The translations under genes and the position numbers were made by a program. This document shows, one piece after another, positions 2,326 through 12,152 of a DNA stretch of 19,864 nt (within the stretch, counting starts at the first letter, position 1; each line of letters begins with the position of its first letter). This DNA comes from Candidatus Pacearchaeota archaeon (lineage in GTDB: Archaea > Nanobdellota > Nanobdellia > Pacearchaeales > GW2011-AR1): the NCBI GenBank assembly GCA_016866975.1, contig VGKP01000014.1, positions 1-19,864 on the forward strand. Direction: 5' to 3'. A model generated the notes under the pieces. It had not been told where the DNA came from, did not search any database, and was given only the letters and a program-made list of their open reading frames with translations.

Positions 2326-2991
2326 ATGAATCCGCTTTCGCAAGACATTGAAAAAAATATAGTAAAGTCAGGTACAAGCATAGTCGGAATTGTATGCAAG
2401 GATGGAGTTGTACTTGCTGGTGACCGAAGAACCACTGCTGGAGGCCAGATAGTCATGTCTAAACGTTCTGATAAAGTCATCAAAATAAATGATTATATTG
2501 CTGTGGCAGGCACAGGAGTATCCTCAGACATAGATTTATCTCAAAGGGTTCTTTCTGCAGAATTGCGCCTTAAGGATCTTAAGACAAAGTCTCGGACTAC
2601 TGTGAAGGAAGCTGCAAATCTATATGGCCTCATGTCTTATCGTAATATCAGGACGCCCAGCATGATACCTAGCATGGTAGGTACATTGCTTGCAGGAGTA
2701 AACGAAGACGGTTCTACCGAACTTTACACTATTGAACCTGCTGGAGGAGTCTATAAGGTTGAAGATTATGATGCCAACTTTGGTTCAGGCATGCCCTATA
2801 TATTGGGTCTTCTCGAAAGGCAGTACAAGAAAGACATGAGCGTGAAAGATGCCGTGGAGTTGGCCAAGGAATGCATAAAGGCAGCCATGGAAAGAGATCC
2901 TGCATCGGGCAATGGTATTGACGTATTCGCAATCACAAAAGAAGGCGTTCGCCACGTTGTTTCTGAAGTGATTGTGATTGAATACAAATAA
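2326..2991 (+). CDS. psmB: 20S proteasome beta subunit (with 16-aa propeptide)
   Basis: Propeptide ends in G|TSIVGIVCKDGVVLAGDRR. Lys33-equivalent SDKVIKI, GSG motif (FGSGM) and RDPASGNG are present. Lies directly upstream of aCPSF1, a conserved archaeal neighbourhood. Confidence 0.93.
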   Translation: MNPLSQDIEKNIVKSGTSIVGIVCKDGVVLAGDRRTTAGGQIVMSKRSDKVIKINDYIAVAGTGVSSDIDLSQRVLSAELRLKDLKTKSRTTVKEAANLYGLMSYRNIRTPSMIPSMVGTLLAGVNEDGSTELYTIEPAGGVYKVEDYDANFGSGMPYILGLLERQYKKDMSVKDAVELAKECIKAAMERDPASGNGIDVFAITKEGVRHVVSEVIVIEYK

Positions 2992-4921: not shown

Positions 4922-5035
4922 ATGATTCTAATAATGTGCTGGAAGATTGCAATCCCGCAGGTTGGATGCTGGAAGATTGCAATCCCGCAGGTTGGATGCT
5001 GGAAGTTGAGAAACCCGCAGGAGGTTTTCATTTGA
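4922..5035 (+). other. Possible 37-aa upstream ORF (MILIMCWKIAIPQVGCWKIAIPQVGCWKLRNPQEVFI*)
   Basis: ATG sits at the leaderless position of the promoter and the frame is open through the repeat. Its TGA (5033-5035) overlaps TTG 5032-5034 of the protease gene. Confidence 0.3.
4937..5021 (+). repeat. 30-bp tandem repeat: two exact copies plus a 25-bp diverged copy, each able to form a hairpin
   Basis: TGCTGGAAGATTGCAATCCCGCAGGTTGGA at 4937-4966 and 4967-4996. TGCTGGAAGTTGAGAAACCCGCAGG at 4997-5021 matches 20 of 25 positions. Internal palindrome GATTGCAATC at 4945-4954 and 4975-4984. Confidence 0.95.
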
Positions 5036-5970
5036 AGCATTCTATAAAGATAACTCTTATCCTTTTGGGAATGTTTCTCCTTGCTCAGTTTATTGGACTC
5101 GGAGTCAATTACATCTATTCTCCAGACATAACTTCTGAGACTGTAACTCTTTCAAATAATGAGACAGTCACCATAAATGTAACAACTTATAAGAATCTTC
5201 CAGAACCTTTCCAGCCTGCAGAGGAGAACAATCATTGGGGCAATTTCATATCTCTGATAATAGCATTCATTCTAGCGATAGGAATAATGCTCTTAATGAT
5301 GAAATTCAGGGCAGAAATACTTTTGAGGATATGGTTCTTCATAGTGATTATTCTCGGCCTGACAGTGGCATTGAATGCCTTTCTTTTATCGATCCCATAT
5401 GCACTGCTTTATTCATTTATCATTTCAGTCATTTTAGCTTATTGGAAAGTCTTCAGGAGAAACATCATCGTCCACAATCTGACAGAACTTCTCATATATC
5501 CCGGAATAAGCGCTGTATTTGTCCCTCTACTTAATTTATGGGGAGTCGTGGCCCTTCTAGTGATAATCTCATTTTATGATATGTATGCTGTCTGGCACTC
5601 AGGTTTCATGCAGAAGATGGCAAAATATCAGATAAAGAAAGTCAAGGTCTTCTCAGGTTTTTTCATACCTTATATCAGGAAGGAAGACAGGGCATTGATT
5701 GAAAAAATAAAGAAGGGCAAGGCCAAGGACCAGAAAATCAGAGTTAACATTGCACTTTTAGGCGGAGGAGATGTAATATCCCCGATGATTCTATCAGGGA
5801 TTGTCTTGCAGGCATGGGGAATAATTCCAGCTTTAATGGTAACTCTTGGCACAACAATTGCCCTCGCATACTTATTTTACATCTCTGAGAAAGGCAAATT
5901 CTATCCTGCCATGCCTTTCATAACAGCTGGCTGCCTGATAGGTCTTGCGATAAGTTCTCTTCTTAGATAG
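5032..5970 (+). CDS. Presenilin/signal-peptide-peptidase-like GxGD intramembrane aspartyl protease (archaeal DUF1119-like), about 312 aa
   Basis: Multiple TM segments. Catalytic YD (ISFYDMYAVW), GxGD (LGGGDV) and PAL-equivalent YPAMPF are present. Start placed at TTG 5032 because a GGAGGT Shine-Dalgarno lies at 5020-5025; the longer ORF-track start (4936) runs through the tandem repeat. Confidence 0.85.
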   Translation: MKHSIKITLILLGMFLLAQFIGLGVNYIYSPDITSETVTLSNNETVTINVTTYKNLPEPFQPAEENNHWGNFISLIIAFILAIGIMLLMMKFRAEILLRIWFFIVIILGLTVALNAFLLSIPYALLYSFIISVILAYWKVFRRNIIVHNLTELLIYPGISAVFVPLLNLWGVVALLVIISFYDMYAVWHSGFMQKMAKYQIKKVKVFSGFFIPYIRKEDRALIEKIKKGKAKDQKIRVNIALLGGGDVISPMILSGIVLQAWGIIPALMVTLGTTIALAYLFYISEKGKFYPAMPFITAGCLIGLAISSLLR

Positions 5971-6688
5971 AAAAATCAATAGGTTGAGTGACTACTTGAA
6001 TTGCTTCAATTTCTTTCCTAATTCGGGACATTGTTTTAATCTTTGCCTGGGCAAGAGAAGATTGAATTTCTTGGCCATATTGCTTTATATCATGAGGAAC
6101 GACAACTACCATGTCAAATCCTCCAGTATAAATATCCGTAGCAGCCCTTTCAAGTGCAGAGTCAGCCATAGAAGCAGCATCTGATAAACTTATCTGCTCA
6201 AAAGAAAGGTATTTTTGTTCGTCAAAATATCGAAGTGCGTGCTCACTTCCACTTCCAATAGAAGTCCCTAATCTTTCTTCTATACGCCCCAAGGGCCAGC
6301 AAGTGTATAGCTTAGGCTTTCCTTCGTAACGTGATGCGATAAGAAGGCTGTTCTGGGCACTACTATTCCATGTCTTACCTCCGAACCGATTGTAATTAAG
6401 GCGGAAAAGTTCTTCAAAATGCCCCTTTTCCAAGGATTCTTTTAGAGGAATTTTGCCTTCAAGAAGATCATAAAGGAACTGACAGTAATCAGAATCTGCA
6501 ATACCTGCCATGCACACCGCGAACTCATTAGATCTAGATATATGGATTTTTTGAGCATTGGTGCGCGTAAGTCTCTTATACGCAACATCTCCTCTTTCTT
6601 CCCATTCCGTGCGTGTACTTGCGATGTCTGAAGCAAGGACTACCCCAGGTGTTCCTTTGCATGCAACTATTCCTACAAGAGTAGTCAT
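5963..6688 (-). CDS. Divergent proteasome-beta-like Ntn hydrolase without propeptide, 241 aa
   Basis: Starts M-TTLVGI (Thr1 exposed by Met removal). Also has GVVLASD, QKI, MAG, SIGSGS and TDIYTGG, in the order and spacing of beta-subunit catalytic motifs. Confidence 0.8.
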   Translation of the reverse strand: MTTLVGIVACKGTPGVVLASDIASTRTEWEERGDVAYKRLTRTNAQKIHISRSNEFAVCMAGIADSDYCQFLYDLLEGKIPLKESLEKGHFEELFRLNYNRFGGKTWNSSAQNSLLIASRYEGKPKLYTCWPLGRIEERLGTSIGSGSEHALRYFDEQKYLSFEQISLSDAASMADSALERAATDIYTGGFDMVVVVPHDIKQYGQEIQSSLAQAKIKTMSRIRKEIEAIQVVTQPIDFSI

Positions 6689-6709
6689 ATCTTTTTATTT
6701 AACCATTCT

Positions 6710-6724
6710 TTTTTAAATCTTTCT
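6710..6724 (-). promoter_or_regulatory. BRE/TATA promoter of the beta-like gene (leaderless)
   Basis: Minus strand reads AGAAAG-A-TTTAAAAA, 21 nt before ATG 6688. Confidence 0.6.
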
Positions 6725-6790: not shown

Positions 6791-7594
6791 ATGATAATGA
6801 AACCAGAACTTGTGAAAAGGATCAAAGAATATTTCAACCTGAACATTTACGAGACTAAGGTCTGGCTAGCCCTCCTTACTAAAGGTATAGCTTCAGCCAG
6901 GGAAGTCGCAGATCTTTCAGGAGTGCCTAGAAGCAGGACATATGACGTACTGGAATCTCTTGAAAAATCAGGGTTTGCAATAACCAAGATAGGCAAGCCT
7001 GTCAAGTATATTGCAGTAAAGCCTACAGAAGTCCTTGAGAAAATGAAGGCAAATACTATGAATGATGCTCAGGAAAAAGTCAAATCCCTTTCTACTCTAA
7101 AGGACACTCAAGAATATACTGAACTTGAACAATTACACAAGTCAAGCATATCTTTGGTTAAATCAGTAGACATTACAGGATCTCTTAAAGGAAGGTCAAA
7201 TGTCCTTGGAAGATTACGAGAACTTCTTGAGAGCGCAAAGAACGAAGTGTTAATCTGCACAACCGTATCAGATTTTGAGGATAAAAGCAGGATACTTGTA
7301 CCTGCCCTAGACAAGCTTGCTAAAAATAATGTAAAGATCAAGCTAGCATTATCTGGAGATAGTGAAAATATAAGAAAGGTATCAAGCAAAATAAACGCCA
7401 AGGTAAAAACCACAGATACAAACGCAAGGTTTTTCATCACAGATAAGAAAGAAGTATTATTCATGGTAACTCCAGAGCAAGCTGATGAGGAGATGGGCGT
7501 TTGGCTCAACTCAGAATTCTTCACATCTTCACTCACAAATATAATCGACTTCTCTCTCAAGAATGGGAATGGCAATCTCCCCCAGACGAAATAG
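6791..7594 (+). CDS. TrmB-family transcriptional regulator / chromatin protein, 267 aa
   Basis: N-terminal winged HTH typical of TrmB (LNIYETKVWLALL...AREVADLSGVPRSRTYDVLESLEKSGF...KPVKYIAV), a helical linker, and a C-terminal effector-type domain (AKNEVLIC...ARFFITDKKEVLF). Confidence 0.9.
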   Translation: MIMKPELVKRIKEYFNLNIYETKVWLALLTKGIASAREVADLSGVPRSRTYDVLESLEKSGFAITKIGKPVKYIAVKPTEVLEKMKANTMNDAQEKVKSLSTLKDTQEYTELEQLHKSSISLVKSVDITGSLKGRSNVLGRLRELLESAKNEVLICTTVSDFEDKSRILVPALDKLAKNNVKIKLALSGDSENIRKVSSKINAKVKTTDTNARFFITDKKEVLFMVTPEQADEEMGVWLNSEFFTSSLTNIIDFSLKNGNGNLPQTK

Positions 7595-9249: not shown

Positions 9250-9684
9250 TTAAACTCGCGCTTCCTTTTTCTCTCCACCAAATATGCTAGACAGGTCTAC
9301 AATATATTTTCCGTCTTCCAATTGATATACTCTAGGTCTTTCCTTAGATAGAAGCTTTTGCAGATCCAAAAGATATTTTCCAGGTTTCAATACTCTTATG
9401 CTCTCAAAATCAAGGAATACGGGCTGTTCTTCATCTTTTATCCCAGTTATATCTCTTATGTCCTCTTCTATCTGTTTCTTTTCACCAGTACTAAGGTTGA
9501 GAACCAGGTCTTCAGCGCTATTATTTCCAGGAATAGACGGATGAGCCATGTTGCTTGATATCAGTTTCAATTTATCTTCTTTTATATAAAAGAAGAATTT
9601 TCTTTTACAGTTAGAACATCCATTTAGTACTTCTTGAGCTCCATCTTTGTAAGTAGAAGAGCAATGAACACACCGATATGCCAT
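9250..9684 (-). CDS. oapC: OapC Zn-ribbon protein (DUF2072-like origin-associated protein C)
   Basis: N-terminal CVHC...CSNC..KFFFY and C-terminal ESIRVLKPGKYLLDL. Third gene of the GTPase-DUF2073-Zn-ribbon triad. Confidence 0.88.
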   Translation of the reverse strand: MAYRCVHCSSTYKDGAQEVLNGCSNCKRKFFFYIKEDKLKLISSNMAHPSIPGNNSAEDLVLNLSTGEKKQIEEDIRDITGIKDEEQPVFLDFESIRVLKPGKYLLDLQKLLSKERPRVYQLEDGKYIVDLSSIFGGEKKEARV

Positions 9685-9732
9685 AATCCCTAAAAACCTG
9701 CAAACTTAATAAAGTTTTAGATGATTGCCAAT

Positions 9733-10116
9733 TCACTTAAACAATAACTCAACTTTTTTAGGATCTCTCTTTATCTCCTTCACTACGCTTGAGGGTCCTA
9801 TGACTGTCAGTGCAGAACTGTCTCCTACAAGCCTTCTTGCTAGGCCATATTTCATCTTAACAAATATAGTCTTGTCCCTTAGGTCAGGCTCAATCACTGC
9901 AAGCTCAATGCCCCTGAAATTCTTAATATGCCCTACAAGGGCCATTGTGTCCTCAATCAATCTTGCCTCTTCTTCTGCTCTCAATCTTCCATGTATCATG
10001 ACTATCTTATTGTTCAAGATCAGGCTAAGTATCTTTTTTACTCTCTCAGATATGCTTAAGTCAGCTATCTCCGAATACGGAATGACTTGCAAGCTTAAAC
10101 CCTCTATTTTTTTCAT
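9733..10116 (-). CDS. oapB: OapB (DUF2073-like origin-associated protein B)
   Basis: KIVMIHGRLRAEEEARLIEDTM...FRGIELAVI...LTVIGP. ATGA overlap with oapA. Confidence 0.88.
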   Translation of the reverse strand: MKKIEGLSLQVIPYSEIADLSISERVKKILSLILNNKIVMIHGRLRAEEEARLIEDTMALVGHIKNFRGIELAVIEPDLRDKTIFVKMKYGLARRLVGDSSALTVIGPSSVVKEIKRDPKKVELLFK

Positions 10117-12152
10117 ACTGTTTTGCTGAGCCTGAATACTGCTTCGTAAAATTCCTCCATATTTAATCCTTCTTTTGCGGAGATTCCAACAACTTCATAT
10201 TCTGGGAAAGCCGCGGCCACTTTTGCGACATCTGCCTTCTTTATATCTATCTTATTTGCAGCTATGAGCACAGGAATCTTCCTAGCCACAAGATTTCCTA
10301 TTATAGTGATATTCACTTGGGAATAAGGGTTTTCCGTAGCGTCAAGGACAACTATCACTGCATCCATATCATCAAGCCACCGTATCGATTCTATGATTCC
10401 TTGGGTGGCTTCTTTTGCTCTCTTCTTTGCATCTCCTTTTTTGACACCGAATTTCAAGAACTCTTCATAATCTATTTTTGTCGCGATACCTGGAGTGTCG
10501 ATGAGCTTAAATACGAGAGTTTTGCCCTTATGCTTTATCTCTACACGTTCCTTAAACTGAACTTCTCGTGTCTCATGCGGTATCTTGCTCACGACGCCAA
10601 TCTCCTCTCCTGTCCAGTCCTTGCATATTCTGTTTGCAAGGCTTGTATTATGCGCGATAAGACCATTGGAAATAATGAAAGTATGTGTATCTTCTACGGT
10701 GAGATCATAAACATAATCATCATACGTTTCTTTTTCAATAGATATAATTTCATCCCAGAGGGCATCTGCGTGAGCAAGTTTCTGTACAAAAGGATTGTCT
10801 AATTGATCAGCCATATCCTTAATCCTATGGTAAGTGATACGATTATCTCTTCGCATTCGCGCAATATGCTTATCATCAAGGAAAAATTCCTCCTGCGTTA
10901 AACCCGACTTCTTTTGAATTTCTTCCAATAACTCTACGATAGGAAGGGCAAATAGATTTCTTTTGAGGCCAGCAGCACACAAAATAGAGAGATTTTCTGA
11001 TTTATAGCCTATATCAAATCCTATATATTTCTTAAAGAGTCGATGATTATCACTTCCTCCAATAAGGAGGCGATAATAGGGATTGCCTTTAATGATTTTC
11101 TCTTTAAATCTCCCAACAATTCCAAAACGATTTAACAAGAGTTGAACTTGTTCAGTAAGTTTTTTACTCTTACTCGTAAATTCTATCTCTGCTCCACGGA
11201 TTCGGGCAGTTTTAGGAACATATCCTTCACAATCAAACATTCTGCGTAAAAAGAGTGCAGTAAGATTGTCAGGTAATCCCATAAGTTGCGCAGGAATTTT
11301 CTTGCCTCCAGCAGTTGCTGGTTTCATATCAAAAACATCAGAAAGCCAGTCACAGAGAGTCTTAGAATAAATTTCAATTTGAGGTATACCTTTGTTTATA
11401 CGATAAATGGTAGGCAGTTTAAAGACATTCTTAGCAATGGAATCAAAGTGATTAAGAAGTTTAGGATTTGTGTTGCTAAAGACTATTCTATTAGCACCAT
11501 GATGACTCTCTGTTAGAACATATGCAATAAAACTGACCATATCTTCATTAATGTATGTTGGAATAGATATCGATTTAGGCTTATGAAATTTAGAAAGAGT
11601 TTGAATTTGACCATTGCAGGTTGTAAAGAGGGCCTGAGTTATCTGAGGAATTTCTACTAAAGTATTAAGTGCTATCTTCTTAGTAATTCCTACACATTCA
11701 CTGACTTTCAAATTGCCGCTTCGTACATACTCCACACCATTATTGGAGATGCGCATAAGAGGATGATTAGGGGTAACGCGTATTTTCCTACCCGAGCGAG
11801 TCTTAATATTCAATATTTCTCCAGTATATTTTTGAGCATAGACATAAGTTACTTTTTGAGGGACAATTTTCATGCTTTCGATATCAAAACTAGGGAGGAT
11901 AATATTGGAATCTGAGGCATCAATATAAATTTCCTTATATCCATCTTCTTTAGGGGCACCTTTATCTTCTCGTACTTGATTAAATATTTCTTTAATAGGC
12001 TTAACCTGGCCATTCTGTAAAACGACTTCAGTTTCTGGAGCAACACACTTTCCAGCATTCGGAGGTCCGTAAAAGCCTATCTTAATATGTTCTTTTCTTC
12101 GAAAAAGACCACGCAAAACCCTCCTCGAGAAATTCTTCAAAATTCGCAACAT
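10113..12152 (-). CDS. oapA: OapA Era-like GTPase precursor containing an intein (679 aa precursor, 212 aa after splicing)
   Basis: Removing residues 36-502 restores G1 GPPNAGK|TS, G2 (HETRE), G3 DTPG, G4 NKID and G5 SAK. Directly followed by oapB and oapC. Confidence 0.92.
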   Translation of the reverse strand: MLRILKNFSRRVLRGLFRRKEHIKIGFYGPPNAGKCVAPETEVVLQNGQVKPIKEIFNQVREDKGAPKEDGYKEIYIDASDSNIILPSFDIESMKIVPQKVTYVYAQKYTGEILNIKTRSGRKIRVTPNHPLMRISNNGVEYVRSGNLKVSECVGITKKIALNTLVEIPQITQALFTTCNGQIQTLSKFHKPKSISIPTYINEDMVSFIAYVLTESHHGANRIVFSNTNPKLLNHFDSIAKNVFKLPTIYRINKGIPQIEIYSKTLCDWLSDVFDMKPATAGGKKIPAQLMGLPDNLTALFLRRMFDCEGYVPKTARIRGAEIEFTSKSKKLTEQVQLLLNRFGIVGRFKEKIIKGNPYYRLLIGGSDNHRLFKKYIGFDIGYKSENLSILCAAGLKRNLFALPIVELLEEIQKKSGLTQEEFFLDDKHIARMRRDNRITYHRIKDMADQLDNPFVQKLAHADALWDEIISIEKETYDDYVYDLTVEDTHTFIISNGLIAHNTSLANRICKDWTGEEIGVVSKIPHETREVQFKERVEIKHKGKTLVFKLIDTPGIATKIDYEEFLKFGVKKGDAKKRAKEATQGIIESIRWLDDMDAVIVVLDATENPYSQVNITIIGNLVARKIPVLIAANKIDIKKADVAKVAAAFPEYEVVGISAKEGLNMEEFYEAVFRLSKTV
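10647..12047 (-). mobile_element. Intein with LAGLIDADG homing endonuclease, 467 aa (Cys36-Asn502, +1 Thr)
   Basis: Block A CVAPETEV (TGT at 12047-12045), block B RVTPNHPL, LAGLIDADG-type motifs FIAYVLTES and FLRRMFDCEGYV, block H SKSKKLTEQVQLLLNRFGI, blocks F/G VYDLTVEDTHTFIISNGLIAHN (AAT at 10649-10647) followed by Thr. Confidence 0.96.

Follow-up and report, generated by a model that had tools for sequence, protein, structure and literature searches.

The window analyzed here, a stretch of 19,864 nucleotides of contig VGKP01000014.1 from a Candidatus Pacearchaeota archaeon, a tiny DPANN archaeon of the symbiotic type (GenBank assembly GCA_016866975.1), encodes a third proteasome-fold paralogue of 241 amino acids, which is designated X throughout (Table 1). 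Judged from its sequence, X starts without a propeptide, retains all catalytic residues of 20S beta subunits, is located outside the PsmA and PsmB clades, and is probably active as a threonine peptidase. The reading that we favor, with a confidence slightly better than even, is that X would be an accessory, self-assembling, and propeptide-less threonine peptidase, which works independently of ATP, is clasped together by its C-terminal helix, and has a cleft shaped by a long hairpin.

Gene X and its N-terminus

The open reading frame (ORF) of X comprises 241 codons in the ORF listing of the window, and the protein begins with the residues M-T-T. Only two sense codons are located between the ATG and the next stop upstream (open frame of 243 amino acids), which makes a longer N-terminus impossible. 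This bears out the preliminary description of this DNA, which had recognized a propeptide-less beta-like protein with Thr2 directly following the initiator Met. X runs toward a presenilin-type signal-peptide-peptidase gene, and the stop regions of the two genes overlap by eight bases; on its other side, X diverges from a trmB-type regulator gene. X is hence monocistronic. The TATA-like sequence TTTAAAAAA, which is located 21 to 29 nucleotides 5′ of the ATG, would fit a near-leaderless archaeal transcript. It is weak evidence, since the DNA is AT-rich and such a box alone proves little. The promoter of its own with which X had been credited fits the monocistronic arrangement and the TATA-like box, and it stays putative.

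Catalytic residues and predicted fold

The residues of X were equated with those of PsmB by a profile–profile alignment (hhalign) of the X family with 15 PsmB sequences from DPANN archaea, in which the two profiles matched with a probability of 98.8% (E-value 1.2e-16). All previously proposed equivalents, namely, those of Thr1, Asp17, Lys33, Gly47, Ser129, Asp166, and Ser169, are paired in this alignment (Table 1). Asp21, Lys47, Gly62, and Gly145 are kept in 116 to 117 of the 117 aligned family members. The position of D185 is occupied by Asp in 111 of them and position 188 by Thr (85) or Ser (29), i.e., by one of the two in 114 members. The rows of this alignment were pre-selected for an MT start; the unbiased count for Thr2 is therefore that of the 126 full-length representatives, 116 of which start with MT (110 with MTT). 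In five more representatives, an MTT aligns with that of X but is preceded by a start that is probably mis-called, and one starts with VTT. In the family alignment, the conservation of X is far beyond chance.

A few representatives deviate at the nucleophile. Ser replaces Thr in two of the 126 (P0079 and P0083; start M(M)ST), as in connectase, P0131 starts with MNT and would lack the nucleophile, and one further representative is N-terminally truncated.

The spacing between the catalytic Asp and Lys amounts to 26 residues in X (D21–K47) versus 17 in the neighboring PsmB (D33 to K50), exactly as had been noted before, and hhalign places the underlying insertion at residues 29 to 38, which gives it a length of ten. 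A spacing of 26 is present in 72 of the 117 members and typical of the close clade, and it varies between 14 and 28 across the wider family. Within the close family, W29 is nearly invariant and the G33-D34 pair at the tip of the hairpin is invariant.

The AlphaFold2 model of X, which was built on 21 family members, reaches a predicted local distance difference test score (pLDDT) of 88.6 and a predicted template modeling score (pTM) of 0.82. It exhibits the alpha-beta-beta-alpha sandwich of N-terminal nucleophile (Ntn) hydrolases, which in the PF00227 fold is composed of S1–S11 and H1–H4, with the strands 3–9 and 15–20 and the strand of Lys47, an unusually long hairpin (strands 23–32 and 35–44), and helices at residues 66–76, 82–88, 92–102, 148–157, and 168–182. 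The C-terminus is composed of the last two short strands, a helix of 29 residues (205–233), and eight residues of low confidence. Of the helical tail of about 45 residues that had been predicted, the length stands, because 45 residues extend beyond the Pfam domain, but the tail opens with the two short strands and only 29 of its residues are in the helix. The hydrophobic positions of this helix recur every three to four residues across the family, and it aligns with the C-terminal helix of the M. jannaschii alpha subunit. M60 of X, which is nearly invariant in the close family, is the equivalent of residue 45 of the S1 pocket. By analogy to archaeal and beta5-type subunits, this location of M60 hints at a hydrophobic S1 preference of X.

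Table 1. Coordinates of gene X, its predicted functional elements, and other features of the window
Feature	Position	Strand	Basis and remarks
Coding sequence of X	5963..6688	(-)	ORF; Pfam PF00227; AlphaFold2; Z 19 to 20S beta subunits; ~130 representative homologues
TATA-like TTTAAAAAA, putative promoter	6709..6717	(-)	-29 to -21 of the ATG of X; sequence only
Start M1-T2-T3 of X	6680..6688	(-)	T2 = predicted N-terminal nucleophile, equivalent to Thr1 of PsmB; translation, hhalign
D21 of X	6626..6628	(-)	Equivalent to Asp17; hhalign; D in 116/117 members
Ten-residue insertion W29-K38 (WEERGDVAYK) of X	6575..6604	(-)	hhalign gap opposite PsmB; lengthens the S3/S4 beta-hairpin
K47 of X	6548..6550	(-)	Equivalent to Lys33; hhalign; K in 116/117
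G62 of X	6503..6505	(-)	Equivalent to Gly47, oxyanion hole; hhalign; G in 117/117
G145-S146-G147 of X	6248..6256	(-)	Equivalent to Gly128-Ser129-Gly130; hhalign; S in 109/117, T in 4
D185-I-Y-T188-G-G190 of X	6119..6136	(-)	D185 equivalent to Asp166, T188 to Ser169; hhalign
C-terminal amphipathic helix of X, residues 205-233	5990..6076	(-)	DSSP on AlphaFold2 model; followed by 8 poorly modeled residues
Canonical beta subunit PsmB	2326..2991	(+)	Pfam 156 bits; groups with PsmB of related genomes; 16-residue propeptide
Presenilin-type signal-peptide-peptidase gene	4936..5970	(+)	Convergent with X
30-bp tandem repeat	4937..5021		2.8 copies, 92% matching
trmB-type regulator gene	6791..7594	(+)	Divergent from X
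Origin-associated protein genes oapC and oapB	9250..10116	(-)	PF09845, PF09846
GTPase gene with intein	10113..12152	(-)	Pfam Intein_splicing, LAGLIDADG_3, MMR_HSR1

Position of X among proteasome homologues

X passes the Pfam model PF00227 (Proteasome) with 43.5 bits (cut-off 22.4), fails the archaeal beta equivalog TIGR03634 (32.9 bits, cut-off 224), and scores 22 bits with the alpha model TIGR03633 (cut-off 287); the N-terminal H0 extension (PF10584) of alpha subunits, which have no nucleophile, is lacking. The matches of X to the beta, alpha, HslV-type, and connectase references are weaker than those that genuine members of these groups should reach. When the model was compared with 48,161 representative chains, 20S beta subunits scored highest (Z 19.0–19.5). 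One example is the beta subunit of S. acidocaldarius (Z 19.1), which superimposes with a root-mean-square deviation of 2.8 over 169 residues and with model residues 1–3 on chain residues 1–2. The scores of an archaeal alpha subunit (Z 17.6), a designed Anbu protein (Z 17.1 over 185 residues), and M. tuberculosis PrcB (Z 16.9) are lower than those of the beta subunits, as are those of BPH (Z 15.5–15.6), HslV (Z 15.2), and connectase (Z 11.0–11.2). A profile search of the PDB sequences with X retrieved the alpha subunit of M. jannaschii with an E-value of 1.4e-12 and its beta subunit with 7e-11. Among the hhalign profiles, the canonical beta and alpha subunits match each other more closely (E-value 9.6e-24) than either of them matches X, with the above-mentioned value for X and beta and 7.9e-6 for X and alpha.

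The maximum-likelihood tree comprises 28 members of the X family, 17 canonical beta and six canonical alpha subunits, and HslV of E. coli; its canonical subunits are all from DPANN archaea, and Anbu, BPH, connectase, and the families described in 2021 (see below) are outside its scope. The X family is located on one side of a branch with a support of 98/97, which is present in 98% of the bootstrap trees, and HslV is found on the side of the canonical alpha and beta subunits. A quick tree of 112 rows agrees. Nesting among ordinary PsmB sequences, by which the preliminary description would have seen its proposal refuted, is not observed for X within this sample, and the phylogeny places X outside the PsmA and PsmB clades. 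In the ESM Atlas, X belongs to an archaeal (Nanobdellota) cluster of 136 members, which adjoins Nitrososphaerota and mainly bacterial clusters. This neighborhood would fit the surroundings of the published homologue WPH and is only a lead.

Canonical subunits in the same genome

The genome of X (0.8 Mb in 31 contigs, 89% complete) encodes the canonical beta subunit in the window (Table 1) and the canonical alpha subunit on contig 10 (271 bits). X is therefore a third paralogue and no substitute for either of the two. The possibility that X represents a divergent alpha subunit was also considered and is ruled out by the canonical gene on contig 10. Both canonical subunits are likewise kept in five other genomes that carry X. 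The genome contains a gene of the M24 methionine-aminopeptidase type and a Cdc48-type AAA+ ATPase (contig 5, 45253–47478, minus strand; 1047 bits). A separate PAN was not found in the 89%-complete assembly; the sole matches of the PAN model are both AAA domains encoded by the Cdc48 gene.

Family size, distribution, and genomic slot

An exhaustive search of 1.84 billion representatives (E ≤ 0.001; clustered at 50% identity) yielded 132 homologues of X, nearly all of them with a length of 215–250 amino acids and aligned from residue 1 to residue 1. Homologues with taxon names are exclusively assigned to Woesearchaeota, Pacearchaeota, Nanoarchaeota, or “archaeon”, and the taxon-named matches to a profile of the remote members are all from DPANN. 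A search for related loci with the close family retrieved seven loci, six of which are from Pacearchaeota or Woesearchaeota. Fused forms were not found among the longer proteins, which is weak evidence; P0137 and P0173, two candidates for long family members, proved to be spurious matches. A remote M-T-T branch, represented by P0169 (333 amino acids), P0147 (340), and P0170 (274) and by open frames of 335–354 amino acids in the genomes G321, G161, G292, and G193, has long and apparently helical insertions after helix H1.

The distribution of X is patchy. With the close-family profile, an orthologue was found in one of 60 related genomes, namely, G008 from the same genus, which results in two of the 17 genomes of this genus, and in 13 genomes of an even sample of 400 high-quality genomes across the phylum, with seven of them in a single family (f31). 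The broader profile detects the wider M-T-T family in about 25 to 27 of the 400 genomes at ≥ 92 bits, compared to 60–88 bits for canonical beta subunits; the 400-genome tally takes in six genomes flagged as unpublished (G418, G392, G304, G454, G381, and G303), which have canonical-level matches only and on which no individual statement is based. One genome (G369) carries two members of the wider family (C3:38250–38927 and C5:10407–11114).

The genes for a Rad50-like protein, PsmB, FttA, the presenilin-like peptidase, X (on the opposite strand), and TrmB follow one another in this order in the window, G008 (locus L039), and L036, the last of which is a more distant Woesearchaeota genome that carries X in the same slot. 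Three other species of the genus (G005, G007, and G014) keep the block without X, and the gap between the peptidase gene and trmB measures 82–275 bases. Given the presence of X in the slot of the more distant L036, its repeated loss would be more parsimonious than repeated gain. In a comparison of the window with G008, X exhibits an identity of 48% versus 64–89% for the eight syntenic neighbors. This pattern indicates that X is dispensable and fast-evolving; the catalytic residues are nevertheless held fixed. The clean presence or absence at one slot and the fast evolution argue for an accessory rather than a housekeeping gene.

In a fourth species of the genus (G003), the slot is occupied by an unrelated orphan gene (L064:5107–6423, minus strand) for a protein of 438 amino acids, which matches no Pfam family and contains the HExxH-like motif HEGMGH. 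This orphan is also unrelated to the 438-residue orphan beside the family member in L044 (genome G271).

Proposed function of X and alternative explanations

The following scenario is the one that we favor. Transcribed from a promoter of its own, X would be synthesized without a propeptide, and a methionine aminopeptidase would take off Met1 and thereby expose Thr2 as the nucleophile, which would render autolysis unnecessary. Thr2, Asp21, and Lys47 are the predicted catalytic triad with Gly62 as the oxyanion hole, and Ser146, Asp185, and Thr188 may keep the active site in place as they do in 20S beta subunits. Copies of the protein would assemble into a single or double ring that acts as an ATP-independent peptidase. 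Self-assembly is most likely, because X has kept the helices H1–H4, which are used by ring-forming relatives for their subunit contacts. The C-terminal helix may serve as an inter-subunit or inter-ring clasp comparable to helix H5 of Anbu, and the S3/S4 hairpin, in which the Trp and the Gly-Asp tip are conserved, would border the substrate cleft and either extend the non-primed channel or alter the packing of the ring. It is from the features described above that we infer the removal of Met, the activity, the self-assembly, and the roles of helix and hairpin.

Several points weigh against this scenario. The nearest match of X in fold and profile is a beta subunit. In the window as well as in L039 and L036, X and psmB are at most 3 kb apart, and X may hence work with the 20S particle. 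In L044, a remote family member of genome G271 (L044:5330–6754, minus strand) is located 75 bases upstream of psmB–fttA on the same strand, arranged as if it formed one operon with the canonical beta subunit. Nearness to psmB is the sole recurrent association of X, seen in the shared block and, independently, in L044. Finally, the ten-residue hairpin is found at the site of the specificity insertion of connectase and, by analogy, could indicate specific processing or ligase activity instead of a general peptidase activity.

The main rival explanation is that X represents an alternative catalytic beta-type subunit, which replaces some or all of the PsmB subunits in the 20S particle and changes its cleavage specificity. 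Second beta paralogues in other archaea have this effect. A beta subunit is the closest match of X in fold (Z 19) and profile (98.8%, E 1.2e-16), alpha and beta subunits are encoded in every X carrier tested, and the vicinity of psmB in the three shared loci and in L044 points in the same direction. We nevertheless regard this explanation as unlikely. The X family branches outside the canonical alpha and beta subunits with good support and a long branch, X reaches 33 bits versus the 224-bit cut-off of the PsmB equivalog, and the lengthened hairpin at the cleft or interface and the long C-terminal helix are both lacking in archaeal beta subunits. Moreover, approximately 97% of the genomes sampled from the phylum and most genomes of its own genus yielded no X, and it is far from psmB in most loci: in most carriers, the two genes are separated by tens of kilobases or belong to different contigs.

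A second alternative, that X is a sequence-specific processing protease or connectase-like transpeptidase with one or a few substrates and the S3/S4 hairpin as its specificity element, is distinctly less probable. It is suggested by the insertion at the S3/S4 site, i.e., the position of the signature element of connectase (PMC8665760), by the conservation of Trp29 and the Gly33-Asp34 tip, and by the Ser nucleophile of P0079 and P0083. However, connectase is the weakest structural match of X (Z 11.2 vs 19), the insertion of X extends a beta-hairpin and does not form a two-helix lid, H1 and H2 are present, and the spacing from Asp to Lys is variable across the wider family. A conserved neighboring gene for a substrate, or any other recurrent partner gene, was not found in 16 loci; beyond the shared block, the X family is neighbored by orphans and by genes for an ABC transporter, a glycogen debranching enzyme, and a diphthamide/asparagine synthase fusion.

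A conflict or defense function is very improbable. It might be suggested by the variable slot, which contains no gene in three sister species and the unrelated 438-residue gene in a fourth, by the fastest evolution within the syntenic block, and by the patchy distribution. Against it, no nuclease, integrase, transposase, or small partner is located beside X in the window and none is recurrent in the 16 loci, flanking repeats around X were not found, no relatives were found in phage records, plasmids, and IMG/VR viral contigs, and the neighbors of X are housekeeping genes.

Other features of the window

The GTPase gene adjoining oapB and oapC harbors an intein with a LAGLIDADG endonuclease domain. 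Its orthologue in G008 encodes 213 amino acids only (L039 10550–11191), and the intein hence appears to be present in the window and absent from G008. The origin-associated protein genes oapC and oapB suggest the presence of a replication origin in their vicinity. The tandem repeat (Table 1) is located at the GTG that is listed as the start codon of the ORF for the presenilin-like peptidase. As the corresponding ORF of G008 begins (MKHSIKIT...) at the equivalent of window residue ~34, the repeat is probably located 5′ of the true start of the peptidase gene.

Comparison with known systems

The retention of a third proteasome-type gene in a genome of 0.8 Mb needs explaining, and the presence or absence of X at one slot together with its fast evolution narrows the range of hypotheses. 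X opens no new enzyme class and settles no long-standing question. We know of no stand-alone archaeal proteasome homologue among those catalogued in 2021 with a known structure, assembly state, or substrate. X is a good test case, as it is small and confidently modeled, equipped with all catalytic residues, and kept in such a reduced genome.

The canonical beta subunit PsmB (PF00227, TIGR03634, MEROPS T1) provides the best fold and profile match and shares with X the equivalent catalytic and structural residues, the counterpart of Met45, and the helices H1–H4. As part of a particle of 28 subunits, PsmB is enclosed by alpha rings. X differs from it in the lack of a propeptide, which PsmB loses by autolysis at Gly-1/Thr1, the S3/S4 hairpin that is longer by ten residues, the 29-residue C-terminal helix, and the separate clade. 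Furthermore, all archaea have PsmB, in contrast to the rare and dispensable X.

HslV (PDB 1M4Y; E. coli b3932) is a self-compartmentalizing Ntn peptidase that resembles X in the catalytic Thr directly after the initiator and in its T-T start. The earlier statement that the N-terminus of X clearly fits none of the known stand-alone families is thus not supported: HslV of E. coli also begins with V/M-T-T, and the homologues described in 2021 are propeptide-less, too. Unlike X, HslV is bacterial and compact (~175 amino acids), lacks a C-terminal helix (no S12/H5), and has HslU as its partner. The NCBIfam model of HslV has no match to X at E ≤ 10. HslU did not turn up but was not searched for either, the AAA+ searches in the genome of X being those for Cdc48 and PAN, which found Cdc48.

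Anbu (PDB 5LOY and 5LOX) shares with X the stand-alone occurrence, the absence of a propeptide, and the long C-terminal helix, which as helix H5 forms an inter-ring coiled coil in Anbu. The latter is bacterial, and its gene shares a conserved operon with genes of the transglutaminase-like and ATP-grasp types, whereas X has archaeal housekeeping neighbors, and no Anbu chain is present among the top 60 PDB profile matches of X. Connectase (PDB 6ZW0 and 8JTU) shares with X the archaeal and stand-alone occurrence and the S3/S4 position of its insertion. It is characterized by a Ser1 nucleophile, the loss of H1 and H2, a two-helix S3/S4 lid, and a monomeric state; X, in contrast, has a Thr2 nucleophile, the helices 66–76 and 92–102, and a beta-hairpin as its S3/S4 insertion.

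The closest resemblance in kind is found among the 22 new and uncharacterized proteasome homologues reported by Fuchs, Alva and Lupas (Bioinformatics 2021; PMC8665760). Three archaeal ones are close to the true proteasome, namely, WPH, PHI with its helical insertion, and ACC, named for its archaeal occurrence and coiled coil, which comprises 17 sequences only and has a RefSeq representative (PMC8665760). A propeptide is absent from all new homologues, WPH, ACC, and some PHI have predicted C-terminal coiled coils, and a similarity to alpha as well as beta subunits is stated for WPH and group II (PMC8665760). Neither a genomic context nor an AAA+ partner was found for the new homologues, and S3/S4 insertions are listed only for connectase, PMI-5, and PMI-6 (PMC8665760).

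The comparison of X with ACC, WPH, and PHI (published representatives WP_161937350.1, WP_040339656.1, and WP_012956871.1) is based on their descriptions only. The features in common with X are the missing propeptide, the retained Thr/Asp/Lys/Gly set, the archaeal occurrence beside a true proteasome, the long C-terminal helix (a predicted coiled coil in WPH, ACC, and some PHI), the similarity to alpha as well as beta subunits, and the lack of a neighboring AAA+ partner. A likeness to PHI is also seen in the large helical insertions after H1 of remote X-family members such as P0169. X differs from the three in the ten-residue extension of its S3/S4 hairpin and in the occurrence of its family, which was found only in metagenome genomes of the Woesearchaeota/Pacearchaeota type. 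The common features are descriptive and not sufficient for membership.

It is doubtful, but conceivable, that the X family forms a branch outside the 22 catalogued homologues, in which the conserved, lengthened hairpin (Trp29, Gly33-Asp34) and the C-terminal helix would build a quaternary form or substrate channel that no known proteasome relative has. If this were true, reduced DPANN archaea would possess a dispensable and fast-evolving protease or ligase for their dealings with hosts or viruses. The new Ntn-protease family that had been envisaged in the preliminary description is not upheld, as stand-alone and propeptide-less archaeal homologues have already been catalogued (PMC8665760). The X family is a rare, fast-evolving, and dispensable archaeal family of the kind catalogued in 2021 and never studied at the bench, and X is accordingly at most another branch of this known, uncharacterized kind (PMC8665760).

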